The notes: a model not told the origin generated them from the letters alone. 32,000 nucleotides of DNA from Mycolicibacterium smegmatis (GCF_001457595.1 NZ_LN831039.1:1620001-1652000), one strand, 5' to 3'. Shown: positions 897-19,636, numbered from the stretch's first letter. Numbers and translations are program-made.

Positions 897-1137
897 TGCC
901 TTGTGTCGCCGACGGCGGTCGCCGTGCTCTATCGGGCATTCGGAGTGGACGCTGTGCTGGATGGGTCGGATCGGAAAGTTCTTCGCAAACAGGTGACCGG
1001 TGTGTGTCGACCGCCGCTGGCCACCCCGCCGATGCGCGCGACATGGGCTTTCACTGTCGTCAGTTTCCCCGCAGCAACGCCCTCGCCGGTGTAGTCTCCG
1101 GGCGGATCTCCTTTGCGGAGACGGCACTTCGACGAGG

Positions 1138-3498: not shown

Positions 3499-3540
3499 CG
3501 AACCTGAAGCGATGAACCCGGTCCCGCCTACCCTGAAGCC

Positions 3541-4431
3541 ATGCTGACGGAGCTTGTCGAGGTTCCCGGCGGCTCGTTCCGGATGGGGTCGACAAGCTTC
3601 TACCCCGAGGAAGCGCCGGTGCACACCGCGACGGTCGGGGATTTCGCGATCGAACGTCATCCGGTGACCAACGCGCAGTTCGCCGAGTTCGTCGAGGCCA
3701 CCGGGTATGTCACCGTGGCCGAACGGCCGTTGGATCCGAAGCTGTATCCCGGTGTGCCGGAAGCGGATCTGGTGCCGGGTTCCCTGGTGTTCCGGCCGAC
3801 GTCCGGGCCGGTGGACCTGCGGGACTGGCGGCAGTGGTGGGACTGGGCGCCGGGTGCGTGCTGGCATCACCCGTTCGGGCCGCGCCGCGAATTCTGCCGG
3901 CCCGATCATCCGGTGGTCCAGGTCGCCTACCCCGATGCGGTGGCCTACGCGACGTGGGCCGGACGCCGGTTGCCCACCGAGGCCGAGTGGGAGTACGCCG
4001 CACGTGGCGGACCGAAGGGCGGCGTGGGGTTCCTCTACGCCTGGGGCGACGAGGTGTGTCCGGACGGGCAACTCATGGCCAACACCTGGCAGGGAAAGTT
4101 CCCGTACCGCAACGACGGTGCACTCGGCTGGAAGGGGACGTCACCAGTCGGGACGTTCCCGCCGAACCGCCTCGGTCTGGTCGACATGATCGGCAACGTG
4201 TGGGAGTGGACGGCGACGAAGTTCTCGGCGCACCACCGACCGGGGGACGAATCTCACGTCACGTGCTGTCCGCCGCCGTCCGGTGGCGACCCCGGCGTCA
4301 ACCAGGTGCTCAAGGGTGGATCGCATCTGTGCGCGCCGGAGTACTGCCACCGATACCGCCCGGCGGCACGCTCACCGCAGTCGCAGGACAGCTCGACCAC
4401 CCACATCGGGTTCCGCTGCATCGTCTCCTGA
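3541..4431 (+). CDS. Formylglycine-generating enzyme (sulfatase-modifying factor family)
   Basis: Contains VPGGSFRMG, HPVTNAQFAEFVEATGY, WEYAARGG, NVWEWT and LKGGSHLCAPEYCHRYRPAARS, all typical FGE/SUMF1 motifs. It lies 42 nt downstream of the sulfatase whose CSPTR motif it would modify. Confidence 0.9.
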   Translation: MLTELVEVPGGSFRMGSTSFYPEEAPVHTATVGDFAIERHPVTNAQFAEFVEATGYVTVAERPLDPKLYPGVPEADLVPGSLVFRPTSGPVDLRDWRQWWDWAPGACWHHPFGPRREFCRPDHPVVQVAYPDAVAYATWAGRRLPTEAEWEYAARGGPKGGVGFLYAWGDEVCPDGQLMANTWQGKFPYRNDGALGWKGTSPVGTFPPNRLGLVDMIGNVWEWTATKFSAHHRPGDESHVTCCPPPSGGDPGVNQVLKGGSHLCAPEYCHRYRPAARSPQSQDSSTTHIGFRCIVS

Positions 4432-4454: not shown

Positions 4455-6083
4455 TCAGAAGATGATGATCGCGACCACGGTCGACAGGACCAGCCCTGCC
4501 ATCACCGGCAGGAAACACTTGCGGGCCAGGCTGAGCACCGGCACCCGGGCGAAGCCGGCGACGGCCACCAGCGACGACCACGCCACGAGCGTGCCGCCAC
4601 CCGACCAGATGTTGCCCATCTGACCGATCGCGGCCAGCGTCGACGGATCCATGTGCACCACCGGACCCAGCGCCCCGGACAGCGACCCGGTCAACGGCAG
4701 GCCACTGAAACCCGAGCCCTCCAGGCCGGCGATGAGTCCGACGAACAGCACCGCGAACGACGTGACGACGGGGTTCGGCGACAAATGCGACTGGGCGGCG
4801 GTGATCAGGTCGAACAGGAACGCCGGACCGGTGGCGTCGGCGGGCATGCCGAGGATGGCCGCCGAGAAGTCACCGTTGCCGATGAAGAAGAACCCTGCGA
4901 TGGGCAGCACGATGCCCATCGCCTTGAACGCGAACACCAGACCGTCGACGACGTGTTGCGACGAGGTCTCCAGGAAGTTGCGCTTGTCGTTGGTGGCCGC
5001 GGCGGCGAACAGCAGCATGGCGGCCAGGCCACCCACGATCGCCGCGGCGTCGCCGCCCTGGAGCGGGGGCACCACATTGGTGAACTTGCCGAGCAGCAGA
5101 TAGACGATGAACGCCAGGTACACCAGCGGGACCAGGAGTGCGAACACCTTCGCCGACAGTTTCTTCGGTTCCTGCTCACCGGTCTCGGCCCCGGTGTCCA
5201 CTATGGCCTCCACGATCACCGCGGCCTTCACTGCCTTCACGGTGGCCACGGCCGTGTCGCCGTCAGAGCGGGTGGGGCCGTCGGTGACCGTGGGTCCGGC
5301 GGGAGCGGGTTTGCGTCCGTTGGAGCCGGCCGTGGCGCTCGGACTGCCCGCCGGCCCGCCGCTCGGGGAATCCTCATCGTCGTCGCCGACACCTCGGCGC
5401 TCGGCCGCGTTCTCCCATTCGACAAGCAGTTCCGGTGACGGGTTGCGCCACGTGCGACGCTGCATGACGTAGGTGATCCCCAGCGCGGTCAACCCCACGA
5501 TGAGGGACAGCACCATGGCCTTGTCGGCAACCGAATCAGGGTCGACGCCAGCGGCTTTCGCGGAGATGCCGGGTGCGACCTTGATGATGTAATCCGACGA
5601 CAGGGCCATGCCCTGACCGGCGATCGCGATGACCATGCCCACCGACATCGGCGAGAGGCCCGCGCGGATCGCGACCGGGATGAGCACCGCGCCCACGAGC
5701 GGGACGGCAGGGGTGGGCCAGAAGAACAGCGAGATCACGTAGGTGACGATCGCGAGCACGATGAAACTGCTCGTCCCGGCGCGCATGACGCGGCGGAACG
5801 GGGTGACCATCATGCGGTCGGCGCCCATCTCGCGCAGCGCGCCCAGCATGGCCGTGACGATCGCGATGATCAGGAAGATGTTGAACAGTTCCTTGGCCGC
5901 GGTCAGGCTCGCGTTGAATATCGCCGACAGGCCGGTGATCAGGCTGCCCGAGAACGCCCAGGCAGTGAGCAGCGTTGCAGTTACCGCAGGCACGACGATG
6001 TTCTTGCGGACCGCCATCGTGAGCAGGATGACCACGATTCCGGCGAGGTATATCCAGTGCGCCGCGGTGAGTGGGGTGTCCAA
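4455..6083 (-). CDS. Polytopic permease, paralogue 1 (ion-transporter-superfamily-like, GntP/CitMHS-type architecture; family not securely assigned)
   Basis: 542 aa and hydrophobic throughout, with two multi-helix halves split by an acidic Pro/Gly-rich loop (GDDDEDSPSGGPAGSPSATAGSNGRKPAPAGP...). TTG start at 6083 is preceded by GAGAGG 7 nt upstream. About 40-50 percent identical by eye to the ORF at 16620..18140; shared strings include AAHW.YL, IAGQGMALSSDYI, APAFLFD, GLP.TGSL and GGGTLV.WSSL. Confidence 0.8.
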   Translation of the reverse strand: MDTPLTAAHWIYLAGIVVILLTMAVRKNIVVPAVTATLLTAWAFSGSLITGLSAIFNASLTAAKELFNIFLIIAIVTAMLGALREMGADRMMVTPFRRVMRAGTSSFIVLAIVTYVISLFFWPTPAVPLVGAVLIPVAIRAGLSPMSVGMVIAIAGQGMALSSDYIIKVAPGISAKAAGVDPDSVADKAMVLSLIVGLTALGITYVMQRRTWRNPSPELLVEWENAAERRGVGDDDEDSPSGGPAGSPSATAGSNGRKPAPAGPTVTDGPTRSDGDTAVATVKAVKAAVIVEAIVDTGAETGEQEPKKLSAKVFALLVPLVYLAFIVYLLLGKFTNVVPPLQGGDAAAIVGGLAAMLLFAAAATNDKRNFLETSSQHVVDGLVFAFKAMGIVLPIAGFFFIGNGDFSAAILGMPADATGPAFLFDLITAAQSHLSPNPVVTSFAVLFVGLIAGLEGSGFSGLPLTGSLSGALGPVVHMDPSTLAAIGQMGNIWSGGGTLVAWSSLVAVAGFARVPVLSLARKCFLPVMAGLVLSTVVAIIIF

Positions 6084-6454: not shown

Positions 6455-7831
6455 ATGACCGATGTTCGCCAGACGCCGACTCCCGACGCCGCGCCGCCCA
6501 CCGGCGCGGATACCGGTACGCCGCTGGGGCTCGCGGCGCTGCTCGCGGGCACGCTCGTGGGCACGGTCAGCAACAACGTCGTGAACGTCCCACTCGACGC
6601 GATCATCGGTGAGTTCGATGCTTCTTTGGGAAACGGCGTTTTCGTCGTGGTGGGCTTCCTGGTCTGTTTCGCCGCGACCATACCGTTGGCCGGATGGTTC
6701 GGCGACCGCTTCGGGCGCAGGCGGGTGTACTGCGCGGCGCTGCTCGCCACGGCGGTATGTGCTGTCGGCGCGGCGACCGCACCGTCGTTGCCGCTGCTGA
6801 TCGCATGGCGGTCGGTGGGTGGGGTTGCTGCGGCTGCGTTCGCTCCGGCCGTGATGGGACTGCTCGCGTGGATGTTCTCCGGTGCGCGCCGTGGCCGGGC
6901 CATGGGCGCGTGGGCATCGGTCAACGGTATCGGGCAGGCCGTGGGCCCGACCCTGGGCGGACTGGTGGCCGATCACTGGGGATGGCGCTGGATCTTCGTT
7001 CCCCTGGTCCCTGTCGCGCTCGCGGGTTTTGTCGGCACGCTGCGCTACGTACCGAAGTTCCCCGGCGCGAGGATGCGCTTCGACCTGGCCGGGGCGGCCG
7101 CGCTGACGTTCGGTTCGGCGCTGCTGATGCTCGGATTGGCCATCGTGCCGCAACCGAACGTGAGCGGCTGGGCCGCGGCGGGATCGGTCGCGCTCGGTGT
7201 CGTCGCACTGGTCTGGTTCTGCTTTCACTGTGCGCGCGTGCCCAATCCGTTCGTCAACGTTCGCCTGGTCACCGAATCGCGTTTTGCCAGAAGTGCTCTC
7301 GCGGCGTTTGCGCAGATGTTCTGCCTCGGGGCCACTCTGCTGGCCGTGCCGCTGTACCTCGTGGCGCATGCGGTTTCGATATCGACGGCCGGCCTGGTGC
7401 TGTTCACGGTGCCCGTCGCGATGGCCGTGCTGGGCCCGGTGGTCGGCCGCCGTCAGGACCGCCTGGGCCCCAGGCTCGTGCTGCGTGTCGGGCTCGTCGT
7501 GTTGCTGGCCGTGCAGATCGCCCTGGCCGTCACGGTTGCCCAGGACCGCCTGCTGCTCGGGGTGCTGATTGCTGCACTGGTGACGGCCGGGGTGGGGATC
7601 GCGCTGGTGCAGACGCCGGCGGCCACCGGGGCCACCCGCTCACCCGCGGGTGCGGAGGGGACCGGACTGGGGCTGTTCAACCTGGTGCGGTTTGCCGGAT
7701 CGGCCTGCGGTGCAGCGTGGGTCGCGGTCGCACTCTCGGGGCCCGCGTCGTTCCCCGGGGTGTTCATCGCGTCCGCGGTGATCGTGGCCCTCGGGCTGGC
7801 CGGGACGTTCTTCGGTCCCGACCCGGCCTGA
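6455..7831 (+). CDS. MFS transporter (drug:H+ antiporter-like)
   Basis: From ORF 6332..7831. Start placed at ATG 6455 (MTDVRQTP...); ATG 6440 is possible. MFS motif A is present as GWFGDRFGRRRVY, and the hydrophobic helices are spaced across the whole length. Confidence 0.85.
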   Translation: MTDVRQTPTPDAAPPTGADTGTPLGLAALLAGTLVGTVSNNVVNVPLDAIIGEFDASLGNGVFVVVGFLVCFAATIPLAGWFGDRFGRRRVYCAALLATAVCAVGAATAPSLPLLIAWRSVGGVAAAAFAPAVMGLLAWMFSGARRGRAMGAWASVNGIGQAVGPTLGGLVADHWGWRWIFVPLVPVALAGFVGTLRYVPKFPGARMRFDLAGAAALTFGSALLMLGLAIVPQPNVSGWAAAGSVALGVVALVWFCFHCARVPNPFVNVRLVTESRFARSALAAFAQMFCLGATLLAVPLYLVAHAVSISTAGLVLFTVPVAMAVLGPVVGRRQDRLGPRLVLRVGLVVLLAVQIALAVTVAQDRLLLGVLIAALVTAGVGIALVQTPAATGATRSPAGAEGTGLGLFNLVRFAGSACGAAWVAVALSGPASFPGVFIASAVIVALGLAGTFFGPDPA

Positions 7832-9517
7832 TCAGCGAAAGCTCGCCTCGCGTTCGACCGCGGAGTGCACCTCGTCGAGCAGATCGAGGCGGATGGCCAG
7901 CCACACCGTGAACTGGTGCTCCGGATCGCGGACATCCATGCCGAGCATGCGGGAGATCCGGTCGAGCTTGGCGAGCATGGTGTTGCGGTGCACGTTGAGC
8001 GTGCGCGCGGTGGCGTTGATGTTGCCGCCCTCGGACAGGTACGCCTCCAGCGTCTCCAGCAGATCGGGTGAGGAACGCAACGGCCCCAACACGTCTCGCA
8101 CCAGCTGGCGGCTGTCCTCGGTCTCGGCGACCTGGGCCAGCACCGTGAAACCCCGCAACTGTTGATACGACGTCGCACCCGTGCGGTGCAGGCGCCGCGC
8201 GATACCGAGCGCAACCCTGGCCTCCCGGTAGCTCTCCCGGACCTCCCCGGCGCCGAGCGCCGGGCGGCCGTAGGCGACGGGCGCGGGAAGGCCCCGTCGC
8301 CGCTGCAGCTCGCCGGACATGGCCTCGGCATACTCGGCCATCTCGCTGCGCATGGCCGCAGCGTCCTCGCCGCGCAACGTGCGGACCACGACGAGCACGT
8401 CGCCGATCACCGTGACGTAGGCATGCACCGACGGGTGCGCCGCCACCCCGGCCGCGTACCGCGCCAGCCGCACCATCGGCGTCGTAGGACTGTCGGAAAC
8501 CCTGGGCAGCACACCGGGCGCCACGAAAACACCGAACCGCGCGTCGAGTTCGATGTCGTGATGCTCGGCGCGGGCGCGCATGTCGTGCTCGCTGGAGAAG
8601 CTGCCGTGCACCAGGGCCTGGACGAAATCACCCCGCGCGCGTTCCTCGGCCTCGTCGACGCTGCGTTGCCGCAACATCTCCGACCCGATGATCGCGGTGG
8701 CCTGTTCGGTGAGCACCTCGTGCCGCGCCAGATCGTGCTTGCTCGGGCCGTCGGCGTGATCGGGAGCCAACGTCGGGACCAGGACGGCCACCCAGCCCTC
8801 GAACGACTTGCCCAGCCGGATCGCGCTCGCCACACACGTCCATCTGCTGTCCTCCGGACCGGTGACCTGCTGCGTGCGCGTGTCGTGGCCGTCGTGGCGC
8901 CGCTCCGACGCCGGGAGGTCGGCGGCCAGCATCCGGCTCACCGAATCGGCCAGGGCGGCCACGGCTTCGGGGGGCAGGCCGTGGTGGGCCACCACATGAC
9001 CGCGGGCATCGAGTGCCACGGCGGGATTGCGCGCCAGGTTGGACACCTCGCGCACCAAAATCTGCAGGCCCGCGCCACGGTGGAACAGGCCGGCCAGGGT
9101 GGCGTGCACGTGCGTCGAGTAGCGCATGACGTGCACCTCCTGGCTGAGCGCGCGCTCGGCCAGCAGCCGGTTGAGGGCCGCGAAACCCACCGGGATGCCG
9201 AGTTCCACGACCACCAGCCCGGCGGGCAGCCCGCCCAGGTCCGGTGGGGCGACACCGTCGACCAGCAGCGTGGTCGCGCCCCTGGCGGCGAGCGCCGAAA
9301 GCGTCGAAGCGCGGCCCGTCAACGATTCGGGGCGCGCGTACACCGCCACCGCGTCCAGCCGATCATGTTGTGACAGAACCTCGTTGAGTGGAAGCACCCA
9401 GGTGAGTTCCTCGTCGAGCAGGTCTTCGCCCGCGACGATCCGCGAACCAGCCATGAGGGACTCGTCCAGAAGCCCGCGCACCGTCATCCGGCCGCTGTCG
9501 ATCGGTGGTGCCGTCAT
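7832..9517 (-). CDS. PucR-family transcriptional regulator
   Basis: 561 aa. The C-terminal PucR-type HTH reads NINATARTLNVHRNTMLAKLDRISRMLGMDVRDPEHQFTVWLAIRL. ATG 9517 is preceded by a GGGGG Shine-Dalgarno sequence. It is divergent from the glcG-like/oxygenase operons. Confidence 0.85.
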   Translation of the reverse strand: MTAPPIDSGRMTVRGLLDESLMAGSRIVAGEDLLDEELTWVLPLNEVLSQHDRLDAVAVYARPESLTGRASTLSALAARGATTLLVDGVAPPDLGGLPAGLVVVELGIPVGFAALNRLLAERALSQEVHVMRYSTHVHATLAGLFHRGAGLQILVREVSNLARNPAVALDARGHVVAHHGLPPEAVAALADSVSRMLAADLPASERRHDGHDTRTQQVTGPEDSRWTCVASAIRLGKSFEGWVAVLVPTLAPDHADGPSKHDLARHEVLTEQATAIIGSEMLRQRSVDEAEERARGDFVQALVHGSFSSEHDMRARAEHHDIELDARFGVFVAPGVLPRVSDSPTTPMVRLARYAAGVAAHPSVHAYVTVIGDVLVVVRTLRGEDAAAMRSEMAEYAEAMSGELQRRRGLPAPVAYGRPALGAGEVRESYREARVALGIARRLHRTGATSYQQLRGFTVLAQVAETEDSRQLVRDVLGPLRSSPDLLETLEAYLSEGGNINATARTLNVHRNTMLAKLDRISRMLGMDVRDPEHQFTVWLAIRLDLLDEVHSAVEREASFR

Positions 9518-9713: not shown

Positions 9714-10160
9714 ATGCACAGAATTCACCGCATCACCCTCGACGACGCGTTGCCATTGCTGGCCGCGGGCCGTGCCAAAGCCGAGGAGATCGGGGTCAAG
9801 CAGACCCTGTGCATAGTGGACGACGGCGGCAATGTCATTGCGCTGCACCGGTTGCCGGGAGCCCGTCTGACCGGTGTGGACATCGCGATCGCGAAGGCCT
9901 TCACCGCCGCAGGTCACGAACGTGCCACCCACCTGTTCAACGAACCGCCCAACGGGCCCGCATTGCCCGGCAACGAGGCGTTCGGCATCAGCCATATGCT
10001 GCCCGGCAAGTTCGCGATCTTCGTCGGCGGGTTCCCGTTGGTCTACGACGGGCAGATCGTCGGGGGAGTGGGCATCAGCGGCGGCAACGGCGAGCAGGAC
10101 AAGGCCGTGGGGGCGGCGATCCTCGCCGAGTTCGAGGCGCTCACCGCCGCCCAGGTGTGA
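9714..10160 (+). CDS. GlcG/HbpS-like (DUF336) haem-binding-family protein
   Basis: Start placed at ATG 9714 (MHRIHRITLDDALPLLAAGRAKAEEIGV), preceded by the purine-rich GAGAGAGCGAGAGAGA. The DUF336 hallmark GGFPLVYDGQIVGGVGISGGNGEQDKAVG is present. The upstream part of ORF 9126..10160 is antisense to pucR and was rejected. Confidence 0.8.
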   Translation: MHRIHRITLDDALPLLAAGRAKAEEIGVKQTLCIVDDGGNVIALHRLPGARLTGVDIAIAKAFTAAGHERATHLFNEPPNGPALPGNEAFGISHMLPGKFAIFVGGFPLVYDGQIVGGVGISGGNGEQDKAVGAAILAEFEALTAAQV

Positions 10161-10166
10161 CCCGGA

Positions 10167-10182
10167 TGTGCAGGTTGACCCC
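10167..10182 (+). promoter_or_regulatory. Island box copy 3: TGTGCAGGTTGACCCC
   Basis: Exact TGTGC-N3-TTGAC, 104 nt upstream of ATG 10279. It is followed at +23 by CCGGTGATTGTGACCAT (10198-10214). Confidence 0.55.
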
Positions 10183-10278
10183 GCCGCGGGCGCCGGCCCG
10201 GTGATTGTGACCATGGCCCGCACCCCGAGGCGTCACTAATCTCCCTGGAACCCAAGCATTTTCAGCGAAAGGAAACTC

Positions 10279-10998
10279 ATGACCGAGCTACTGGGACGCG
10301 ATGAATTCCGTGCCGAACTGGAGAACGCGATCAAGGGGCGTGAAGCCAAGAACGCCTCGTTCTCCAAGGCATGGGCCGAGGGCAAGCTGACCAAGGATCA
10401 CTTCGCCCGCTGGGCCGAGAACCACTACCACTACGTGGGCCCGTTCGCCGACTACCTGGCCAACATCTACTCCAACACCCCCGACGAGTTCACCGGCGCG
10501 AAAGACTTCACGCTGCAGAACATGTACGAGGAGGAGCTGGCCGACATCCGCCACACCGACCTGCTCATCAAGTTCGGTGAGGCGTGCGGGACCACGCGTG
10601 AGCGCATCGAGGACCCGTCGAACATGAACCCGATCACGCGCGGTCTGCAGGCGTGGTGCTATGCGGTCTCGCAGCGCGAGCACTTCGTGGTCGCCACCGC
10701 GGCGCTGGTGGTGGGCCTGGAATCCCAGGTGCCCAGCATCTACACCAAGCAGATCGTGCCCCTGCGCGAGGTGTACGGCTTCACCGAGGACGAGATCGAG
10801 TTCTTCGACCTGCACATCACGTCCGACGTCGTGCACGGCGAGCGCGGATACCAGATCGTGCTCGACCACGCCGACACCCCGCAGTTGCAGCAGCGCTGCC
10901 TGCAACTGGTGCGCTGGGGCGCCGAGATGCGCTTCTCCTACACCAAGGGCCTCTACGACTACTACGTCGCACCGGATCTCCAAGCCGCAGGCGTCTGA
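10279..10998 (+). CDS. Haem-oxygenase-fold (PqqC/TenA/CADD-like) protein with a complete putative diiron ligand set
   Basis: 239 aa and collinear with PqqC-like proteins (N-terminal LLGRDEFRAELE..., C-terminal tail LYDYYV). Candidate ligands are E85 (10531), H92 (10552), E148 (10720), H179 (10813), D183 (10825) and H186 (10834). This gives E-x6-H ... E ... H-x3-D-x2-H, the spacing I recall for the CADD diiron site. RBS AAAGGA lies before the ATG. Confidence 0.75.
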   Translation: MTELLGRDEFRAELENAIKGREAKNASFSKAWAEGKLTKDHFARWAENHYHYVGPFADYLANIYSNTPDEFTGAKDFTLQNMYEEELADIRHTDLLIKFGEACGTTRERIEDPSNMNPITRGLQAWCYAVSQREHFVVATAALVVGLESQVPSIYTKQIVPLREVYGFTEDEIEFFDLHITSDVVHGERGYQIVLDHADTPQLQQRCLQLVRWGAEMRFSYTKGLYDYYVAPDLQAAGV

Positions 10999-11043
10999 TC
11001 CCTGATCCCTGAAACCCCGCCGCCTCGACAGAAAGGTTGTGCT

Positions 11044-11394
11044 GTGACTGCGAACTGGGTTGCGGTGGCGAGCCGTAAAGAGCTCGCCCGCCGCCGCAAA
11101 CTCCGCGTGGAACTCGACGGTCTGGCCATCGCGCTGTTCGAGGCGGCGGGCCGGGTGTACGCATTCGCCGACGCATGCGTGCACCAGGACCGGTCGCTGG
11201 TCAAAGGCACCCTGCTGCACGGCAAGGTGATCTGCCCCGGCCACCAATGGCAGTTCGACCTGGAGACCGGATACGAGGAGAGCCAAGGCCGCTGCCAGCC
11301 CACCTACGCGGTGCGCGTCGACGACGACACCGTCTACGTGGACCCCACCGCGCGGATGTCACCCGTGACCGCAGGAGAGGAAGCCAACGCATGA
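11044..11394 (+). CDS. Rieske [2Fe-2S] ferredoxin 1 (small, NirD/HcaC-like)
   Basis: 116 aa. Rieske ligands are CVH (C-x-H) and CPGH (C-x-x-H) within CPGHQWQFDLETG. There is no catalytic oxygenase domain. GTG start with AAAGG upstream. The stop overlaps the next start (ATGA at 11391-11394). Confidence 0.85.
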   Translation: MTANWVAVASRKELARRRKLRVELDGLAIALFEAAGRVYAFADACVHQDRSLVKGTLLHGKVICPGHQWQFDLETGYEESQGRCQPTYAVRVDDDTVYVDPTARMSPVTAGEEANA

Positions 11395-12617
11395 CCGACC
11401 GCACCTTCGTGACCGTGGGGGCCGGACAGACCGCCGCGGTGGCAGCACGCACGCTGCGCCGCCGCGGGTTCGACGGCCGCATCATCCTGGTCGGTGACGA
11501 ACCGCACGCGCCGTACCAGCGGCCACCGCTGTCGAAGGAATTCCTCTGCGACACGGCCGCATCCGATGACCTGTGGATCCTGCCCGAGAAGTGGTGCGCC
11601 GACAACGGCGTCGAGATCCGCACCGGGGCCGAGGTCACCGGCGTCGATGCCGCCACGGGCACCGTCGAGATCGCCGGACAGGCACCGGTGCGCGCCGACG
11701 CGGTGCTGTTCGCCACGGGCGGGCGGCCCCGCCGCTTGCCGGTGCCCGGCCCCCGGCCAGAACTCGTGCACTACCTGCGCACTCTCGATGACGCACGACG
11801 CCTGCACGACGCCCTGGCATCCGGATGCCGTCTCGGTGTCATCGGCGCCGGCTTCGTCGGGCTCGAAATCGCCGCCACCGCAGTGGGTCTCGGCGCTTCG
11901 GTGACCGTGCTGGAAGCCGCGCCGATGCCGCTGGGCACCGTCGTCGGGTCACGCGTCGGCGCCGAGATCGTGCGCCTGCACCGCGGCAACGGGGTCGAAC
12001 TGCTCACCGGCGTGGCCGTGAACGGGGTACGCACCGACGCCGAGGGCGTCGTCGTCAGCACCGGCGCGCAGGACCTGCGCTTCGACGCCGTCGTGATCGG
12101 CATCGGCATCACCCCCAACACCGCTGTGGCCGAGGCCTCCGGGCTCGCGGTCGACGACGGCATCGTCGTCGACGCCCAGGGTCGCGCATCGATACCCAAC
12201 ATCTACGCCGCGGGCGACGTCGCGCGCCGCTACTCCGAACGCGCCGGAAAACACGTCCGCATCGAGCATTTCGACAACGCCAACCGGCAGGGCGCCGCGG
12301 TCGCCAACGCCATGCTGGGCCGCGACGCCGTCAACGACGACGCGCCGTGGTTCTGGTCCGACCAGTACGAGCACAACCTGCAACTGCTGGGCGAGGCCAC
12401 CGGCAACCTGGTGATCCGCGGCGACGTCGGCGAATTCGAGTTCACCGCGTTCTACGTCGACACCGACGACACGCTGCGCGGCGTGTTCACCGTCGACCGG
12501 GGTGAGGACGTCATGGTGGGCCGCGAACTGCTCGGCCGCCGCATCCCGCGCGCCGTCCTGGAAGACGACGACGCCGATTTGTGGGAACTCGTCGACACCG
12601 AGGAGGTGGCACAGTGA
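11391..12617 (+). CDS. FAD-dependent NAD(P)H:ferredoxin reductase (BphA4/putidaredoxin-reductase type)
   Basis: Begins MTDRTFVTVGAGQTAAVAARTLRRRGFDGRIILVGDEPHAPYQRPPLSK (FAD GxGxxA fold plus the RPPLSK motif). A second dinucleotide fold is GVIGAGFVGLEIAA, followed by AAGDVA. Start ATG 11391 was chosen within ORF 11175..12617 by translational coupling. Confidence 0.88.
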   Translation: MTDRTFVTVGAGQTAAVAARTLRRRGFDGRIILVGDEPHAPYQRPPLSKEFLCDTAASDDLWILPEKWCADNGVEIRTGAEVTGVDAATGTVEIAGQAPVRADAVLFATGGRPRRLPVPGPRPELVHYLRTLDDARRLHDALASGCRLGVIGAGFVGLEIAATAVGLGASVTVLEAAPMPLGTVVGSRVGAEIVRLHRGNGVELLTGVAVNGVRTDAEGVVVSTGAQDLRFDAVVIGIGITPNTAVAEASGLAVDDGIVVDAQGRASIPNIYAAGDVARRYSERAGKHVRIEHFDNANRQGAAVANAMLGRDAVNDDAPWFWSDQYEHNLQLLGEATGNLVIRGDVGEFEFTAFYVDTDDTLRGVFTVDRGEDVMVGRELLGRRIPRAVLEDDDADLWELVDTEEVAQ

Positions 12618-14056
12618 CTGTCGAGGGAGCCAACTTCATCGACGGGCAGTGGATCCCGGCCGCGTCGGGACGCACCTTCGCGCGTCACAACCCGGCCGAC
12701 CCCGACGATCTCGTCGGGGTCTTCCCGGCCTCCGACGGCGTCGACGTGCGCACCGCCGTCGACGCGCTCGACAAGGCCGCCCCCGAATGGGCCGCCACGC
12801 CGCCCGAACGCCGTGCGGCGATCCTGGAAGCCGCTGCCGTGCAACTGGAATCACGCGCAGCGGAGTTGATCGCCGAATTGATCCGCGAAGAGGGCAAGAC
12901 CACCGCCGAGGCCACCATGGAGGTGAGCCGGACCCCGGCGAACCTGCGCTTCTACGCCGGCGAGGCGCTGCGGTCCACGGGCACCACCTACCCCGCACCG
13001 GGGGAGGGTCTGGTCTACACGCTGCGTGAGCCCGTCGGCATCGTCGGCGCCATCACACCGTGGAACTTCCCGTTCAACATCCCGTCACGCAAACTCGGGC
13101 CGGCGCTCGCGGCAGGAAATCCGGTGCTGTACAAGCCCTCCGAACTCACCCCGCTGATGGGGCAGCGTCTGGTCGAGGCGTTGTTGGACGGTGGGCTGCC
13201 GCCCTCGGCGCTCGCGCTGGTCCAGGGCGACGGCGTGGCGGGTGCCGCGGTCGCCGCGGATCCACGCGTCGCAGCGGTCACCTTCACCGGGTCGACAGCC
13301 GTCGGCCGTGCGATCCACCAGCAGGTCGGACCCCAGCGCCGCGTCCAACTGGAGATGGGCGGCAAGAACCCCGTGGTGGTCGCCGGGGACGCCGACCTCG
13401 ACGCCGCGGCCGCCCTCATCGTCAAAGGCGCGTTCGGGCTCAGCGGACAGGCCTGCACCGGGACCAGCCGCGTGATCGCGGTCGACGAGATCCACGATGC
13501 GCTGCTCGACCGCGTGGTGGCCAAGGCCGACGCGCTGCAGGTCGGGCCCGGCAATCAGCCCGGTGTGCACATGGGTCCGCTGGCCAGCGCGGCCCAGAGG
13601 GAAAAGTTCCTGCACTACGTGCACGCCGGGATCACCGAGGGCGCCACCCTGCGCTGCGGCGGCACCACGGTGGGCGATCACGGATTCTTCGTCCGCCCGG
13701 CGGTTTTCGCCGACGCGCTGCCGACCATGCGCATCGTCACCGAGGAGGTGTTCGGGCCGCTGGTCGCGTTCCAGCGCGCGGCATCCCTCGACGAGGCCGT
13801 CGCGCTGGCCAACGCCACCGAGTACGGACTGGCGGCCTCGATCGTCACGTCGGACCTCGCCGCGGCGACACGGTTCGCCCGGCAGTCGAAGACCGGCCTG
13901 GTCAAGATCAACCAGCCGACCACGGGCATGGCGATGAACGCGCCCTTCGGCGGCTACAAGGCGTCGAGCACCCAGACCTTCAAGGAACAGGCCGGGCCGA
14001 CGCTCATGGAGTTCTACACGCTCGAGAAGACCGTCTACCTCACCCCGGCCCTCTGA
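12614..14056 (+). CDS. NAD(P)+-dependent aldehyde dehydrogenase
   Basis: GTG 12614 follows AGGAGG (12601-12606) and overlaps the reductase stop (GTGA). Contains FIDGQWIP, the ALDH glutamate box LEMGGKNP and the catalytic cysteine context GQACTGTSR. Confidence 0.9.
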   Translation: MTVEGANFIDGQWIPAASGRTFARHNPADPDDLVGVFPASDGVDVRTAVDALDKAAPEWAATPPERRAAILEAAAVQLESRAAELIAELIREEGKTTAEATMEVSRTPANLRFYAGEALRSTGTTYPAPGEGLVYTLREPVGIVGAITPWNFPFNIPSRKLGPALAAGNPVLYKPSELTPLMGQRLVEALLDGGLPPSALALVQGDGVAGAAVAADPRVAAVTFTGSTAVGRAIHQQVGPQRRVQLEMGGKNPVVVAGDADLDAAAALIVKGAFGLSGQACTGTSRVIAVDEIHDALLDRVVAKADALQVGPGNQPGVHMGPLASAAQREKFLHYVHAGITEGATLRCGGTTVGDHGFFVRPAVFADALPTMRIVTEEVFGPLVAFQRAASLDEAVALANATEYGLAASIVTSDLAAATRFARQSKTGLVKINQPTTGMAMNAPFGGYKASSTQTFKEQAGPTLMEFYTLEKTVYLTPAL

Positions 14057-14070
14057 ACACAGGAGCTGCA

Positions 14071-14424
14071 ATGGAATTCACCCGAGTCGCCAGATCCGGT
14101 CAGGTGCCCGAGGGCATCGTGCGACGGTTCTTCGCGGGCGAGTACGAGTTCGCCGTGGCCCGCCTCAACGGCAAGGCCTACGCGACGTCCAACTACTGCA
14201 CGCATCTGGACTGCATGCTCTCGTCGGGCAAGCTCGTCGACGACGGCATCGGATGCTCGTGCCACGGAAGTGCATTCGACCTCGAGACCGGTGAGCCCAT
14301 CTGCCCGCCCGCCACGGTCGCGATCAAGACCTACCCGGTCGAGGAACGCGACGGCGAGATCTTCGTCGGTGTCGAGCCGGGGGAGATGCCCGTCGGACCG
14401 CGGCGGCGACGCAAGGGGGCGTGA
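14071..14424 (+). CDS. Rieske [2Fe-2S] ferredoxin 2 (BphF/TodB-like)
   Basis: 117 aa. Ligands are CTH ... CSCH (CTHLDCMLSSG, CSCHGSAFDLETGE). AGGAG RBS is present. The stop overlaps the GGT-family gene start (GTGA at 14421-14424). Confidence 0.85.
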   Translation: MEFTRVARSGQVPEGIVRRFFAGEYEFAVARLNGKAYATSNYCTHLDCMLSSGKLVDDGIGCSCHGSAFDLETGEPICPPATVAIKTYPVEERDGEIFVGVEPGEMPVGPRRRRKGA

Positions 14425-16025
14425 GCCAGGTGCAGCGGCCGCCGACACTGTCCACCGGCGCGATGGTCAGCTCGAGCCATCCCGCCGCCAGCTTCGCCGG
14501 GGCGCGCGTACTCGCCGACGGCGGCAACGCGATCGACGCGACCCTGGCGATGGCCGCGGTCACGTGGCTGACGTTGCCCGGTCAATGCGGCATCGGCGGC
14601 GACGCGTTCGTCGTCGTGGCCGAACCCGACGGGCGGGTGTGGACGGTCAACGGGTCCGGCTTCGGCCCCGACGGCGGCACCACGGACTTCTATCGCGACA
14701 TTCAGGGCGAACGATCTGGTATTCCCCTGACCGGTGCGCTCGGTGTCGCGGTTCCCGGCGCCCCGGCGGCATTGGCCGCGTTGCACTCCCACGGCGCACG
14801 CATGTCGCTGGCGGAGCTGTGGGAACCGGCGGCGCGCATGGCCGAGAACGGACTGGCGTGCTCGGCCAAGACCGTCACCGACGTGCGGGAGACGTTCGAC
14901 GCGATCCGCGCCGACGACGGTCTGGCGGCCGTGTACACGCCCGACGGCGCCGTCCCCGCGGTGGGGCAGCGGTTGCCGCAACCCGACCTGGCCCGCACCA
15001 TCCGCCGGCTCGCCACCGCGCCCGGTGATTTCTACACCGGCGAGTTCGCCGAACGCGCCGTGGCGGTGCTGTGCGCGGCAGGCGCCCCGTTCAGCGGCGA
15101 CGAATGGGCCGCCGGTGCCGTCGTCGCTCCCGAGGCCCCGCTCACGGGCGGCTACGCCGGTGCGACGATTCACCAGACGCCACTACCCACCCCCGGCTGG
15201 ATGGTGTTGCAGCAGGCCGCGCTGTGCGACGGAACCCTCGGTGCGGCACCGTGGCTGGGCGCCGAGGCCATCGACCGCATGGCCCGGGCAGCTCGGCTGG
15301 CGTTCCAAGACCGGTTCGCGCTGTGCGGATCCGACGGCGCGGGTGTGCGAGAGGTGCTGGACGCCAACCGGATCGCCGAACAGCGGCGTGCTCTGGATGC
15401 GTCGGCGGAACAGCGGATGTCGTTCAGCGTCGCCGGCGGTGACACGACGTGCACGGTCGCCGTCGACGCCGACGGGCGTGCCGTGTCGTTCATCCATTCC
15501 CTGGGTTTCACGTTCGGGGCCAAGCTCACGGTGCCCGGAACCGGCGTCGTCCTCAACAACCGGTTGGGCCGCGGTGCCTACCTGATCCCCGGGCATCCCA
15601 ACGAGGTCGCGCCGCGCCGCAAACCACTGAACACCCTCAACGCCTGGATCGCCACCGGCGCCGATGGGGAACTGCTCGCCCTCGGCTCCATCCCCGGCGG
15701 CGATGGTCAGGTGCAGTGGAACATGCAGTTGCTCTCGCACCTGTTCGACCACGGGCTGGACCCGGCCGAGGCGGTCAGCGCACCGCGTTTCACGGTGTTC
15801 CCCGGATCCGACGCCGACGTCATCGGCAGGCCCGACGAATTGCGCGTCGAGGCAAGGATTCCCGACGACGTCCGGTCGGAGTTGCAGGACATGGGGCATC
15901 GCGTCGTGGTGCAACCGGATTTCGGCGCCGGCGGAAGCGCCCAGGTGATCCGCCGCGACGCGCGCGGTGTGCTCAGCGGCGCGGCCGACCCGCGTCAGGA
16001 AGGGATCGCGATCGGTGTCGAGTGA
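14421..16025 (+). CDS. Gamma-glutamyltransferase-family Ntn hydrolase
   Basis: 534 aa. The N-terminal region reads SSHPAASFAGARVLADGGNAIDATLA. The autoprocessing/nucleophile threonine context is GGDTTCTVAVDADGRAVSFIHSLG. Substrate cannot be read from sequence, because this family includes non-glutamyl amidohydrolases. Confidence 0.85.
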   Translation: MSQVQRPPTLSTGAMVSSSHPAASFAGARVLADGGNAIDATLAMAAVTWLTLPGQCGIGGDAFVVVAEPDGRVWTVNGSGFGPDGGTTDFYRDIQGERSGIPLTGALGVAVPGAPAALAALHSHGARMSLAELWEPAARMAENGLACSAKTVTDVRETFDAIRADDGLAAVYTPDGAVPAVGQRLPQPDLARTIRRLATAPGDFYTGEFAERAVAVLCAAGAPFSGDEWAAGAVVAPEAPLTGGYAGATIHQTPLPTPGWMVLQQAALCDGTLGAAPWLGAEAIDRMARAARLAFQDRFALCGSDGAGVREVLDANRIAEQRRALDASAEQRMSFSVAGGDTTCTVAVDADGRAVSFIHSLGFTFGAKLTVPGTGVVLNNRLGRGAYLIPGHPNEVAPRRKPLNTLNAWIATGADGELLALGSIPGGDGQVQWNMQLLSHLFDHGLDPAEAVSAPRFTVFPGSDADVIGRPDELRVEARIPDDVRSELQDMGHRVVVQPDFGAGGSAQVIRRDARGVLSGAADPRQEGIAIGVE

Positions 16026-16446
16026 GCAGACCGGCGCACCGGCGCCGCAGGGCGACTACCGGCCCGCGCTGTTGCATGACGGTGTCGTCTACACCGCGGG
16101 CATGACACCGCGCCGCGACGGTGAACTCGTGCTGCGCGGCGTCGTCGGGGTCACGGTGTCGGCCGGGCAGGCCTTCGACGCGGCCGGCATCGCCGCGGGC
16201 AACGCGCTGGCCGCGGCACGCTCGGTGCTGCCCGACGGTGCAACGGATGTCCGCTGCCTGCGCATGACCGTGTACATCGCGTGCGCTCAGTCGTTTCACG
16301 AGCTCTCCGCTGTGGCCGACGGTGCCTCGGCCGCGCTGGGCGCTGAGCTCGGCGGATCAGGCGTTCCGGTGCGCGCGGCCATCGGCGTGCAGACCCTGCC
16401 GTCGGGTGCGCCCGTCGAGGTGGATCTCATCGCTGCGGTGGTGTAG
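16015..16446 (+). CDS. RidA/YjgF/L-PSP-family protein (reactive enamine/imine deaminase family)
   Basis: Start placed at GTG 16015 (VSSEQTGAPAPQGDYRPALLHDGVVYTAGMTPR), with GAAGGGA 9 nt upstream and an 11-nt overlap with the GGT-family gene. Size of about 143 aa and the N-terminal Y..A...G.....G pattern fit the family. Confidence 0.7.
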   Translation: MSSEQTGAPAPQGDYRPALLHDGVVYTAGMTPRRDGELVLRGVVGVTVSAGQAFDAAGIAAGNALAAARSVLPDGATDVRCLRMTVYIACAQSFHELSAVADGASAALGAELGGSGVPVRAAIGVQTLPSGAPVEVDLIAAVV

Positions 16447-16514
16447 GTGCGGTTGTTCTGGTTGGCGGGTGTGAAAAGAAAAGGGGCACAGTGCACATGG
16501 ATCGGCAGCAACCA

Positions 16515-16530: not shown

Positions 16531-16619
16531 GGTGTCTTCCGGCAAATCGGTCGAATTGCGGAAAATGGTGAGCACCTTAGGGTTACATGAATTCAAGGTA
16601 GCCAGGCAGTTCTAGTCGA

Positions 16620-18140
16620 TTGGATGTGAACGCGGTGTCCGCAGCTCATTGGGTGTACCTGCTCGGTCTTGTGGTGTTGATCGGCACAGTGGTGGCCAAG
16701 AAGAACGTCATCGCGCCTGCGCTCATCGCCACATTCCTCACCGGATGGGTCTACCAGGGCAGCGTGACCACCGGGCTGGGAGCCATCTTCAACGCCGCGA
16801 TCGCCGGAACCCGCGAGTTACTGCCGATTTTCATCATCATCGCCCTCGTCACCGCGATGCTCGGTGCCATGCGTGCGCTGGGCTCCGACGCCATCATGAT
16901 CCGTCCGCTGCGCGGGTTGTTCCGCAACGGGCACATCTCCTACGTGTTGCTCGCTGTCGTGACGTTCCTTCTGTCGCTGGCGTTCTGGCCGACACCCGTG
17001 CTGCCGCTGATCGCGGCGATCCTGCTCCCGGCCGCCGTCCGCGCCGGCCTACCGCTGCTCGGCGCCGCACTCGCGATCGCCATCGCAGGCCAGGGCATGG
17101 CGCTGAGTTCGGACTACATCATGGGCGTGGCGCCTGCGCTCTCGGCCGAGGGCGCCGACGTTCCGGCCCGGTTGATCGCCGACCGTGCGACGGTCATCGC
17201 CCTGATCGCGGGCGCCGTGGCCTTGGCGATCGTGTATCTTCGCGACGTGCGCACCAAGGTGCGTGCCCCGGGCGATGGTGACGACATCGGTTCGGCTGCT
17301 TCGGGTTTCGCGCAGGATCCCGACTCGCCGGAGCCGAGTTCCGGCCCGATCGCCGGGCCTGGTGGTCAGGCAGACGGCGGCGCCTTGGCCACCCTCAGCG
17401 CGCCTGCGGCGACCGACGTCGAAGCGGCTCCGGGGCGCAAGGCCCTGCTGATCGCTGTCGCAGTGCCCGCACTGTTCGCCGGCCTGCTCGTCTTCATGCT
17501 CCTCGGGCGGTTCACCACGGTCATCCCCGACATCGACGAAGGTCTCGGCGCTCCGCTGGTTGGCGGCACCGCTGCTCTCGCGCTCGTGGCAATCGCTCTG
17601 ATCAGCAACCGCAAACGCTGGCTCGACGACGTCGGCGAGCACTTCACCGAAGGCATCGGCTTCTCGTTCCGCACCATGGGCATGGTCATCCCGGTCGCGG
17701 GATTCGTCTACATCGGCCTGGCCGACTACTCCGCGGGCATCCTGGGCCTGCCGGAAGGCGCCGAGGCGCCGGCCTTCTTGTTCGACGCCGTCGGCGCGGT
17801 ACAGGACCACATCCCGGCGGCCCCGGCCTTCGCGGCCTTCGCGATGTTGATCGTCGGCATGCTGATCGGGCTGGACGGCAACGGCTGGCCCGGTCTCCCG
17901 TTCACGGGTTCGCTGGCGTCGACTCTCGGGGACGGGACGTCCGACGTCGCCACCTTGGCGGCGATCGCGCAGAACGGTGCCAGCTGGACCGGGGGCGGCA
18001 CGCTGGTGATCTGGTCGTCACTGATCGTCGTCGCGGGTCTTACCGGGGTGTCGGTGATGGACCTGGCCCGACGCCTGTTCATCCCGGTCGTCACAGGACT
18101 TGTGGTGGCCACCGGCATCGCGACGGTGGTGCTGCTGTGA
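16620..18140 (+). CDS. Polytopic permease, paralogue 2 (same family as 4455..6083)
   Basis: 506 aa. TTG start at 16620; in-frame GTG 16626 is an alternative. It has the same two-half architecture as permease 1, with a divergent acidic/Pro-rich central loop (GDGDDIGSAASGFAQDPDSPEPSSGPIAGPGGQADGG). The stop overlaps the amidase start (GTGA at 18137-18140). Confidence 0.8.
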   Translation: MDVNAVSAAHWVYLLGLVVLIGTVVAKKNVIAPALIATFLTGWVYQGSVTTGLGAIFNAAIAGTRELLPIFIIIALVTAMLGAMRALGSDAIMIRPLRGLFRNGHISYVLLAVVTFLLSLAFWPTPVLPLIAAILLPAAVRAGLPLLGAALAIAIAGQGMALSSDYIMGVAPALSAEGADVPARLIADRATVIALIAGAVALAIVYLRDVRTKVRAPGDGDDIGSAASGFAQDPDSPEPSSGPIAGPGGQADGGALATLSAPAATDVEAAPGRKALLIAVAVPALFAGLLVFMLLGRFTTVIPDIDEGLGAPLVGGTAALALVAIALISNRKRWLDDVGEHFTEGIGFSFRTMGMVIPVAGFVYIGLADYSAGILGLPEGAEAPAFLFDAVGAVQDHIPAAPAFAAFAMLIVGMLIGLDGNGWPGLPFTGSLASTLGDGTSDVATLAAIAQNGASWTGGGTLVIWSSLIVVAGLTGVSVMDLARRLFIPVVTGLVVATGIATVVLL

Positions 18141-19636
18141 GCGAGGTGCACGCAGTGCCTGGTCGCACCGTCGCCGAGACGGCCGCCCTGGTGCGTTCGG
18201 GTGAGATGAGCGCCCACGCCGTCGTGCAGGAGGCCCTCGACCGGATCGAGGAGTGCGATGGTGCGCTCGGCGCGTTCGTCCACGTCGACGCCGAGGGCGC
18301 ACTGCAGCGGGCGAGCGCGGTCGACCGGCTGGTGGCAGACGGCATCGATCCCGGGCCGATGGCCGGAATCCCCTTGGGCGTCAAGGAACTTCATCCGGTG
18401 GACGGCTGGCCGTTCGCGATGGGCAGCACGCTGTACGCCGAGCGGATCGCCGACCACACCTGCACCCTGGTGCAACGTGCCGTCTCGGCGGGTGCGGTGC
18501 CCATCGGCGTGACGGCCTCACCGGAGTTCGGGCGGGCGTCTTTCACCGCGTCGGCCGTGCACGGCGTGACCCGCAATCCGTGGAATCTCGATCTCACCCC
18601 CGGCGGGTCGAGCGGGGGGTCGGCGGCCGCGGTGGCCGCGGGCATGGTGCCGATCGCTACGGGCACCGACGGTGCGGGCTCGTTGCGTATCCCGGCGTCG
18701 TACTGCGGTCTGGTGGGGTTCAAGGCCACATACGGCCTGGTCCCGCGCGGGCCCCGGCATGTCGGTGCGGCCGACAACGACCACTACGGCGTGCTCACAC
18801 GCACCGTGCGCGACACCGCCCGTTTTCTCGACTGCGTTTGTGGGATCGATCCGTTCGACCGGGCCTCACTGCCCGCGTCGACCCGGTTCGAAGACCACCT
18901 GACCGCCGATCTGCGTGGGCTTCGCGTCGCCTTCACACCCGATCTGGGCAATGCGCCCAGCGACACACAGGTCGTGGAGGTGGTGCGGACAGCGGCCGAG
19001 AAATTCGTCGCCGCCACCGGTGCCCAGTCGGTGCCCGCTCAAGTGTGCGTCGATCCGGACTGCGGCGCCGCCTACCGCACACTCTCGGCGCCCGACGTGC
19101 ACACACACCTACGTGATGCGCCGGCCGGGCGGAACATCCACCCGACGCTGCGCGGTTACCTGGACGCCGCGGGCGCCATGACCGCCGAGACGCTCGCCGA
19201 CGCCCACGAGGCACGCGCCCGTCTCGTCGCGACGATGGCCGAGGCATTCGAGCGTTTCGACCTGCTCCTGCTGCCCGCCACGCAGGTCCCGGCGTTCGCG
19301 GCCGAGGGTCCCATGCCCACCGAGATCGCGGGGCAGAAGGTGGACCACTGGGGTGCGTTGGCCGTGACCTTGCCGTTCAACCTGACCGGTCAGCCGGCCG
19401 TGTCGGTGCCGGCAGGCGTCGTCGGCGGTGCTCCGGTCGGCCTGCAGATCGTGGGCCGTCGTCACGCCGACGCACTGGTGCTCGCGGCCGCCTCGGCGGA
19501 TGCTGCGCTGACCTGCTGGTCGGACCGGTTCCGCGAATGTGAAACCGCTGCGAGAAAATGGCCGCTGGATCGCGCTGAGTTCACACTCGCGGCGCGGTTT
19601 CGCGTCAGGTTCACACTCGCGATCCCGGTCCGGTGA
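18137..19636 (+). CDS. Amidase-signature (AS) family amidase
   Basis: Contains the AS motif GGSSGGSAAAVAAGMVPIATGTDGAGSLRIPASYCGLVGFKATYG and the upstream lysine context IPLGVKE. The last 35 or so codons run through a repeat cluster (19532-19621), so the true C-terminus is uncertain. Confidence 0.88.
   Translation: MSEVHAVPGRTVAETAALVRSGEMSAHAVVQEALDRIEECDGALGAFVHVDAEGALQRASAVDRLVADGIDPGPMAGIPLGVKELHPVDGWPFAMGSTLYAERIADHTCTLVQRAVSAGAVPIGVTASPEFGRASFTASAVHGVTRNPWNLDLTPGGSSGGSAAAVAAGMVPIATGTDGAGSLRIPASYCGLVGFKATYGLVPRGPRHVGAADNDHYGVLTRTVRDTARFLDCVCGIDPFDRASLPASTRFEDHLTADLRGLRVAFTPDLGNAPSDTQVVEVVRTAAEKFVAATGAQSVPAQVCVDPDCGAAYRTLSAPDVHTHLRDAPAGRNIHPTLRGYLDAAGAMTAETLADAHEARARLVATMAEAFERFDLLLLPATQVPAFAAEGPMPTEIAGQKVDHWGALAVTLPFNLTGQPAVSVPAGVVGGAPVGLQIVGRRHADALVLAAASADAALTCWSDRFRECETAARKWPLDRAEFTLAARFRVRFTLAIPVR
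19532..19621. repeat. Nested direct and inverted 13-17 bp repeats at the island / ribosomal-operon junction
   Basis: GTTCACACTCGCG occurs twice in direct orientation (19579-19591 and 19609-19621, 30-bp period). CGCGAATGTGAAAC (19532-19545) is its near reverse complement. GAAACCGC (19541-19548) pairs with GCGGTTTC (19594-19601). Confidence 0.6.

Follow-up and report, generated by a model that had tools for sequence, protein, structure and literature searches.

A haem-oxygenase-like diiron oxidase as the probable terminal acceptor of a reductase and Rieske ferredoxin chain in a Mycolicibacterium smegmatis operon

A 32,000-nucleotide stretch of the Mycolicibacterium smegmatis genome (GCF_001457595.1, NZ_LN831039.1:1620001-1652000; GC approximately 68%) encodes two Rieske ferredoxins and a ferredoxin reductase, and raises the question of which enzyme receives their electrons. 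This whole stretch is referred to below as the window, and positions are counted from its first letter. An earlier interpretation made from the DNA alone (the sequence-only reading) had proposed as terminal oxidase a 239-residue protein encoded beside the redox genes (10279..10998, + strand), a haem-oxygenase-like diiron (dimetal) oxidase/oxygenase (HDO), fed from NAD(P)H through the reductase and the Rieske proteins. The analysis described here supports that proposal by conserved gene order in Actinobacteria and by replacement of the redox chain in Proteobacteria. The HDO is probably the terminal acceptor of an NAD(P)H to reductase to Rieske chain, and the whole a multicomponent oxygenase.

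The HDO open reading frame (ORF) begins with ATG and has the sequence AAGGAAA 5 nt upstream. Its product matched PF14518 (Haem_oxygenas_2; E 2e-34) with 119.3 bits against a cut-off of 28.9, over profile positions 2-176 of 177. A weaker, partial match to the Pfam family TENA_THI-4 (residues 28-163, 39 bits) was an overlapping clan-level hit, and there are no thiamin genes in the operon. By direct count the protein carries E85, H92, E148, H179, D183 and H186, a 3-His/3-carboxylate set. In phmmer alignments to CtCADD and to the Nitrosomonas p-aminobenzoate (pABA) synthase (NePabS; 9pj4) these residues aligned with CADD E81, H88, E142, H174, D178 and H181, so the CADD-like diiron spacing pointed out in the sequence-only reading falls on the CADD metal ligands. 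All six were invariant in 91/91 homologous hits.

A structure was predicted with AlphaFold2 from a 93-sequence alignment comprising 36 actinobacterial orthologues, 27 proteobacterial orthologues and 30 PabS-like proteins (pLDDT 95.2, pTM 0.90). The model has the seven-helix haem-oxygenase-like fold. A Foldseek search of the PDB returned CtCADD first (TM 0.83/0.92, rmsd 1.7 Å), followed by PqqC, UndA, HrmI, BesC, FlcD and PolF, with a probability of 1.00. The profile search, prediction and superposition that had been proposed as a check therefore place the protein in the PF14518 class with a fold closest to that of CtCADD. It is predicted to be an O2-activating dimetal enzyme of this class.

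The same relatives suggest a different function, namely that the protein is a CADD-type, self-sacrificing pABA synthase of folate biosynthesis whose neighbours are unrelated to it. CADD-type 4-aminobenzoate synthases are the closest solved relatives in sequence (9pj4, E 3e-19; 1rcw and 8va9, both CtCADD, E 1e-15) as well as in fold, with the six metal ligands at the same positions, and the model for these enzymes (TIGR04305) was the best NCBIfam match. That match reached 92.9 bits against a cut-off of 200, however, and identity to the PabS-like proteins was only 22-30%. Where CADD has its sacrificial Tyr27 and its amino donor Lys152, Ser29 and Gln158 stand in 63/63 orthologues of the window protein, whereas Tyr and Lys were found in 30/30 PabS-like proteins. 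The genomic context also differs, the gene being embedded in an operon with transporter, aldehyde dehydrogenase (ALDH) and regulator genes. The pABA synthase assignment was rejected as exceedingly improbable. PqqC was rejected too (TIGR02111, 48.2 bits against a cut-off of 240), in agreement with the sequence-only reading, and no pqqA, B, D or E gene was present among the Pfam- or tblastn-identified genes of the window or of related loci. 'TenA transcriptional regulator' was considered and judged unlikely. Because the cut-offs of the CADD and PqqC families were missed and the sacrificial residues are replaced, the database names 'TenA family transcriptional regulator' and 'pyrroloquinoline-quinone synthase' appear from the sequence comparisons to be misannotations.

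Three redox genes lie downstream of the HDO gene on the same strand. Rieske-1 (116 aa, 11044..11394, +; PF00355) is a BphF-type Rieske [2Fe-2S] ferredoxin with the ligand motifs C45-V-H47 and C64-P-G-H67, and its nearest PDB entries were BphF (1fqt) and the naphthalene dioxygenase ferredoxin. The ferredoxin reductase (FdR; 408 aa, 11391..12617, +; Pyr_redox_2 and Reductase_C) is an FAD-dependent NAD(P)H:ferredoxin reductase of the glutathione-reductase (GR) type, nearest in the PDB to putidaredoxin reductase, BphA4 and TodA. An ALDH gene (480 aa, GTG start, 12614..14056, +; PF00171) separates it from Rieske-2 (117 aa, 14071..14424, +; PF00355), which has the motifs C43-T-H45 and C62-S-C-H65, is related in the PDB to soluble ferredoxins of the BphF/CarAc/TodB type and is 34% identical to Rieske-1. 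Against NCBIfam both ferredoxins were HcaC/AndAb-like and FdR was HcaD/AndAa-like, all below the equivalog cut-offs. The Rieske-1 stop and FdR start share an ATGA overlap, and the FdR stop and ALDH start a GTGA overlap that fixes the ALDH start at 12614, as in the public gene call. The ORF coordinates, the six HDO residues, the Rieske motifs and the ATGA overlap given in the sequence-only reading were all reproduced.

The FdR and both Rieske ferredoxins are thus clear homologues of the BphA4/BphF, TodA/TodB and HcaD/HcaC chains. In three-component Rieske dioxygenases such chains serve a terminal alpha subunit with a Rieske and a mononuclear-iron domain. No Rieske oxygenase alpha subunit, P450 or other oxygenase was detected by Pfam among the candidate ORFs tested across the 32-kb window, a few of which had no Pfam match of any kind. 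The sequence-only reading had noted that its gene block held no conventional terminal oxygenase, and the Pfam scans extend this statement to the window.

HDO orthologues were found in at least 580 of 185,579 species genomes. Those of Actinobacteria were 76-97% identical to the window protein and those of Proteobacteria 62-70%, and 101 of 239 positions were invariant across both phyla, from Mycobacterium to Paraburkholderia. Arg residues, R91 and R189 among them, are included in the positions whose invariance is specific to this orthogroup. In a library clustered at 50% identity the orthogroup was represented by essentially one full-length sequence, the next full-length relatives being 47%, 39%, 38% and less identical. 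A partial match in Brevibacillus was uninformative.

Gene neighbourhoods in Actinobacteria were surveyed in the best 80 of the more than 580 genome loci. These span at least six orders, with members in the Mycobacteriales, Streptosporangiales, Streptomyces, Pseudonocardiales, Micromonosporales, Geodermatophilales and Nocardioidaceae. The Rieske-1 gene was directly downstream of the HDO gene in every locus. Where enough downstream sequence was available the block HDO-Rieske-1-FdR-(ALDH)-Rieske-2 was kept in 75/75 loci, with ALDH inside it or just outside. Around this core the GGT-family, RidA, ALDH, HbpS-like, PucR, MFS and permease genes described below were shuffled into at least four arrangements. 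The Rieske Cys/His ligands were invariant in 78/78 Rieske-1 and 80/80 Rieske-2 sequences; with the invariance of the HDO ligands, this takes the match of the ligand set far beyond chance. Clustering of all other ORFs with high third-position GC in the 80 loci yielded no conserved Rieske alpha subunit, P450 or other oxygenase, and the sole widespread additional gene encoded a small membrane protein. The proposal that the ferredoxins and FdR are dedicated to the HDO is supported by this survey, and the situation named as its refutation, in which they would normally sit beside a conventional oxygenase, was not encountered.

The proteobacterial set consisted of 14 loci from 12 organisms (Cupriavidus metallidurans CH34, Caballeronia, Skermanella, Aminobacter, Paraburkholderia, Billgrantia, Achromobacter, Poseidonocella, Bordetella, Roseococcus, Corticibacter and a metagenomic contig). 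Retained with the HDO, which is here 64-70% identical to the window protein, were a permease, the ALDH and the HbpS-like protein (50%, 48% and 58% identical to the window proteins, respectively), with the ALDH missing from two minimal clusters. The redox chain was a different one. Two plant-type 2Fe-2S ferredoxins (Fer2a and Fer2b) and a further protein, termed X, were encoded in 14/14 loci, and a BenC/MmoC-class reductase (Fer2-FAD-NAD, FNR-type) in 9/14. Protein X is approximately 100-116 aa long and Cys-poor, and in the loci examined its gene lies between the two ferredoxin genes (L082:11157-11480; L083:9078-9428, - strand; L090:11105-11434). It had no Pfam, NCBIfam or PDB relative and is a candidate extra component or effector. 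No homologue of Fer2a, X, Fer2b or the BenC/MmoC-type reductase was found in any actinobacterial locus, and in the proteobacterial clusters no gene for a Rieske-domain ferredoxin was seen among those that were annotated or scanned with Pfam. The Rieske alpha subunit was not conserved in either set. Two HDO paralogues occur approximately 9 kb apart in Aminobacter (L084:10001-10759 and L084:19215-19943), one with Fer2-X-Fer2-ALDH-TauE-OCD and the other with the HbpS-like protein and an FNR-type reductase.

A linked, NAD(P)H-dependent iron-sulfur and flavin donor thus accompanied the HDO in 75/75 adequately covered actinobacterial loci, and a different linked chain did so in 14/14 proteobacterial loci. 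Between the phyla the whole chain is swapped for a non-orthologous one while the HDO is constant. This is hard to explain otherwise and, as judged by comparative genomics, is strong support for the HDO being the electron acceptor.

The chain could instead serve the HbpS-like protein, or a P450 or Rieske oxygenase encoded elsewhere in the genome, the haem-oxygenase-like protein then being a cofactor-free PqqC/TenA-type enzyme or a regulator. The database names and the TENA_THI-4 match would fit such a role. PF03928 proteins, to which the HbpS-like protein (148 aa, 9714..10160, +; E 1e-32) belongs, are annotated as haem-binding, and orphan P450s are common in Actinobacteria. The six ligands, however, are invariant and would be needless in a cofactor-free enzyme, the PqqC model scored far below its cut-off, and no conventional oxygenase was conserved in the 80 actinobacterial and 14 proteobacterial loci. 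The smallest proteobacterial clusters are reduced to the HDO, Fer2a, X, Fer2b, the HbpS-like protein, the permease and a GntR regulator, and in these the HDO is the only candidate redox enzyme apart from the HbpS-like protein. An acceptor other than the HDO is considered very unlikely.

Conservation of the HbpS-like protein equals that of the HDO: it is 71-97% identical across the actinobacterial loci and 58% identical to its Skermanella counterpart, and its gene was present in all proteobacterial clusters examined, where it sits between the ALDH and reductase genes. Its PDB relatives include the formaldehyde sensor EfgA (6bws) and NahX (9jth). It may be an accessory protein, an effector or an aldehyde-binding or aldehyde-handling component.

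A dedicated redox partner of an HDO has been described once before. MboA, the HDO that acts as acetylenase in mangotoxin biosynthesis, needs the dedicated reductase MboB (PMC13185094, published April 2026). This overtakes the statement in the sequence-only reading that such partners were essentially undescribed and narrows the novelty, since the window system is not the first HDO with a redox partner. The two systems are alike in combining an HDO with a 3-His/3-carboxylate site and a genetically linked, NADH-dependent iron-sulfur flavoprotein (PMC13185094). They are unlike in that MboAB has two components, lies in a biosynthetic cluster, acts on a tripeptide and uses a single FNR-type reductase with a plant-type 2Fe-2S domain, whereas the window system has a GR-type FdR, two separate Rieske ferredoxins, an HbpS-like protein and a catabolic operon. 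The reductase class of MboB (Fer2-FAD-NAD, BenC/MmoC-like) is found in the proteobacterial orthologous clusters only. Separate ferredoxins, which MboAB lacks, are of the Rieske type in Actinobacteria and of the plant type in Proteobacteria. MboA was not among the PDB sequence matches of the HDO. A full-text literature search, with subscription-only literature outside its coverage, returned no paper on this HDO family, on an HDO with a Rieske ferredoxin or on an HDO with a sulfonate.

MboB also bears on a reading in which the ferredoxins and FdR only assemble, activate or repair the dimetal cofactor, as YfaE does for class Ia ribonucleotide reductase, and the HDO carries out a four-electron oxidation without external electrons. 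The cofactors of HDOs are labile, and certain reactions of the class draw no net external electrons (PMC13108848). MboB is required only for the second turnover of MboA (PMC13185094), and the Fer2 domain of the proteobacterial reductase gave a weak match to YfaE. For mere maintenance, however, a complete chain of a reductase and two ferredoxins in every genome, swapped whole between phyla, would be a heavy investment, and the tight translational coupling implies near-stoichiometric expression. Such a maintenance role is regarded as improbable, and supply of electrons for turnover of the HDO as the probable one.

The proposed arrangement resembles established oxygenases of other folds. Toluene 4-monooxygenase (T4MO) consists of a diiron hydroxylase, the Rieske ferredoxin T4moC, the effector T4moD and the reductase T4moF. 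Like the window system, the four-component toluene and alkene monooxygenases pass electrons from NADH through a flavoprotein reductase and a Rieske ferredoxin to a carboxylate/His-bridged diiron site, and include a small accessory protein. The T4MO hydroxylase is a ferritin-like, four-helix-bundle (alpha-beta-gamma)2 protein and not haem-oxygenase-like; the window contains no T4moD homologue, and the reductase type differs. In Actinobacteria, AibH1H2 reportedly works with a Rieske-type ferredoxin and a reductase, is itself no Rieske oxygenase, and is said to have an amidohydrolase-related catalytic fold, not a haem-oxygenase-like one. AibH1H2/AibG/AibF, the alpha-aminoisobutyrate hydroxylase of Rhodococcus wratislaviensis, is described as a three-component monooxygenase with a non-haem diiron catalytic component (PMC7782822). 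It is comparable with the HDO system in being an actinobacterial three-component catabolic monooxygenase (PMC7782822), and its proteins are unrelated to those of the HDO system.

In the mechanism proposed, NAD(P)H would reduce the FAD of the putidaredoxin-reductase-type FdR, and one or both Rieske ferredoxins would carry single electrons on to the HDO and its 3-His/3-carboxylate dimetal site. Once reduced, this site would bind O2, and a small substrate would be oxidised by two electrons, in a hydroxylation or a desaturation, with two external electrons consumed per turnover (per O2). The HbpS-like protein would be a further obligatory accessory, either an effector or an aldehyde handler. The product would be, or would yield, an aldehyde for the co-conserved ALDH.

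Several points weigh against this arrangement. According to a 2026 review, chemical reductants suffice for turnover of most HDOs characterised so far, and these work without a protein effector (PMC13108848). The scheme does not account for the two ferredoxins of each system, and two minimal proteobacterial clusters (L093 and L095) lack the reductase gene. The HbpS-like protein could itself be the electron acceptor, which is less likely than acceptance by the HDO. The neighbourhood survey covered the best 80 of more than 580 genome loci, and the support is comparative.

The transcription unit and the functional set extend beyond 10279..14424, the interval assigned to them in the sequence-only reading. 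The content listed for that interval stood; the extent did not, as the operon is larger and has further GTGA couplings and the HbpS-like gene, which had gone unmentioned. Upstream and divergent from the HbpS-HDO operon is a gene for a PucR/CdaR-family transcriptional regulator (7832..9517, -; HTH_30 and GGDEF_2), preceded by a major facilitator superfamily (MFS) transporter gene, a possible exporter (6455..7831, +; PF07690, MFS_1; start as in the public gene call), and by TM1 (4455..6083, -), an unclassified polytopic membrane protein and probable substrate permease with no Pfam, NCBIfam or PDB match. Downstream of Rieske-2, and joined to its stop by a GTGA overlap at 14421, is the gene for a cytoplasmic GGT-family hydrolase of the N-terminal nucleophile (Ntn) type (534 aa, 14421..16025, +; PF01019, E 8e-91). 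A RidA/YjgF-family imine/enamine deaminase gene (approximately 16015..16446, +; PF01042) overlaps its end; by frame analysis the start is ambiguous between GTG at 15967 and at 16015. TM2 (16620..18140, +; no Pfam match), a TM1 paralogue of the same unclassified family, is followed through a GTGA overlap at 18137 by an amidase-signature amidase gene (18137..19636, +; PF01425, E 1e-94). Public gene calls for the identical protein match the ORF boundaries given here. A promoter and terminator scan, otherwise uninformative, found no terminator-like site in 9714-19636, and an Rfam scan of the window matched no RNA family, riboswitches included, that might identify a ligand.

These genes form an island of approximately 15 kb bounded by atsA/FGE (1000..4431) and rplN (19826) and adjoining the ribosomal-protein gene cluster. 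The position beside ribosomal-protein genes recurs in many Mycobacteriaceae loci; in other genera the cluster is elsewhere. On the 3' side of the ribosomal-protein cluster, two tandem leucine-carboxyl-methyltransferase-family (LCM) genes of approximately 300 aa each (29319-31141, -) are unrelated to the HDO operon.

What the system acts on was approached through the genes conserved with it. A GGT-family gene was present in most actinobacterial loci, and RidA, MFS, PucR and TM1 genes were also conserved. In NCBIfam the named families nearest to the ALDH were the alpha-ketoglutarate-semialdehyde dehydrogenases (490 bits, cut-off 750) and the 2,5-dioxovalerate dehydrogenases (444 bits, cut-off 770). 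GGT-family enzymes in four proteobacterial clusters were approximately 30% identical to the actinobacterial enzyme, which suggests independent recruitment, and some Proteobacteria have an Abhydrolase_3 enzyme in the hydrolase slot. In the imine slot Actinobacteria have RidA, and Proteobacteria have an OCD-family or aspartate-dehydrogenase-type protein. The best matches of the OCD-family protein, all sub-threshold, were Pyr2C/Pip2C reductase and the iminosuccinate reductase BhcD. The exporter slot holds an MFS protein, TauE or TerC. Taken together, the gene content indicates that a small nitrogenous compound is broken down by way of an aldehyde and an imine. The GGT-family hydrolase would act on an amide bond and RidA on an imine intermediate, under control of the PucR-type regulator.

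TM1 and TM2 are paralogous polytopic membrane proteins of approximately 510-540 aa. TM1 is 50% identical to a Skermanella 'hypothetical protein' encoded beside the HDO, and permease orthologues accompany the HDO cluster in other proteobacterial loci (L082:8287-9873; L096:8938-10425). The two probably represent an unclassified permease family that would import the substrate. TM2 and the amidase travel as a module in a subset of loci only; the module may be a side route by which the substrate enters in amide form. On a plasmid of Arthrobacter sulfonylureivorans, a 43%-identical permease homologue adjoins genes for an LLM monooxygenase, a flavin reductase, an amidase, an ALDH and a Rid protein; this locus gave no substrate, and the LLM subfamily could not be assigned.

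Three known pathways were considered for the operon: purine catabolism (PucR regulator, HpxW-like GGT), hydroxyproline catabolism (ALDH resembling alpha-ketoglutarate-semialdehyde dehydrogenase, OCD family) and a Puu-like gamma-glutamyl-amine pathway. The analysis decided neither for nor against any of them. The conserved genes found in the loci included no glutamine-synthetase-like ligase.

A further hint came from sulfur. TauE was encoded inside the cluster in 6 of the 12 proteobacterial organisms (L082, L084, L090, L091, L092 and L094), and in Achromobacter the genes of the sulfite dehydrogenase SorA/SorB are divergently adjacent to the HDO gene (L090:7798-9355, -; 697 bits against 600 and 98 against 93, NCBIfam). 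Together these genes suggest that sulfite or a sulfonate leaves the pathway. Neither TauE nor SorAB was found in the actinobacterial loci, which makes the sulfite idea weak for the window, and TauE-family proteins also move organosulfonates, which weakens the hint to sulfite. As a tentative guess, the substrate class may be an amino-sulfonate or its gamma-glutamyl or N-acyl conjugate. In such a desulfonation the HDO would hydroxylate the carbon beside the sulfonate, releasing sulfite and an amino- or oxo-acid semialdehyde; the ALDH would oxidise the semialdehyde, and an amino-acid dehydrogenase and RidA would complete the sequence. The most extended proposal combines a five- to six-component HDO oxygenase (HDO, two ferredoxins, reductase and HbpS-like effector, with X in addition in Proteobacteria) with the first role of an HDO in primary catabolism and with oxygenolytic C-S (or C-N) cleavage of an amino-sulfonate-type compound. 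Taken as a whole it is speculative and rather unlikely.

HDOs are a fast-growing enzyme class that has so far been tied almost entirely to natural-product biosynthesis, and the window HDO would be the first to be placed in a catabolic pathway. The re-reduction of these enzymes in vivo is an acknowledged gap, for which MboB was the first dedicated partner, only in 2026. The locus offers a genetically defined candidate for the physiological reductase system of an HDO, and the use of Rieske ferredoxins in one phylum and plant-type ferredoxins in the other is a natural experiment on partner specificity. HDOs were thought to lack a protein effector (PMC13108848), and the HbpS-like protein is a candidate for one. 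If the reading is true, the multicomponent HDO would represent convergence on the design of the bacterial multicomponent monooxygenases, which are ferritin-like. If the amino-sulfonate reading is also true, hundreds of soil and marine species would possess a new aerobic route of desulfonation. The identity of the substrate would assign functions to an unclassified permease family and to an operon of Rhodococcus, Gordonia, Mycolicibacterium, Cupriavidus, Achromobacter and Bordetella.

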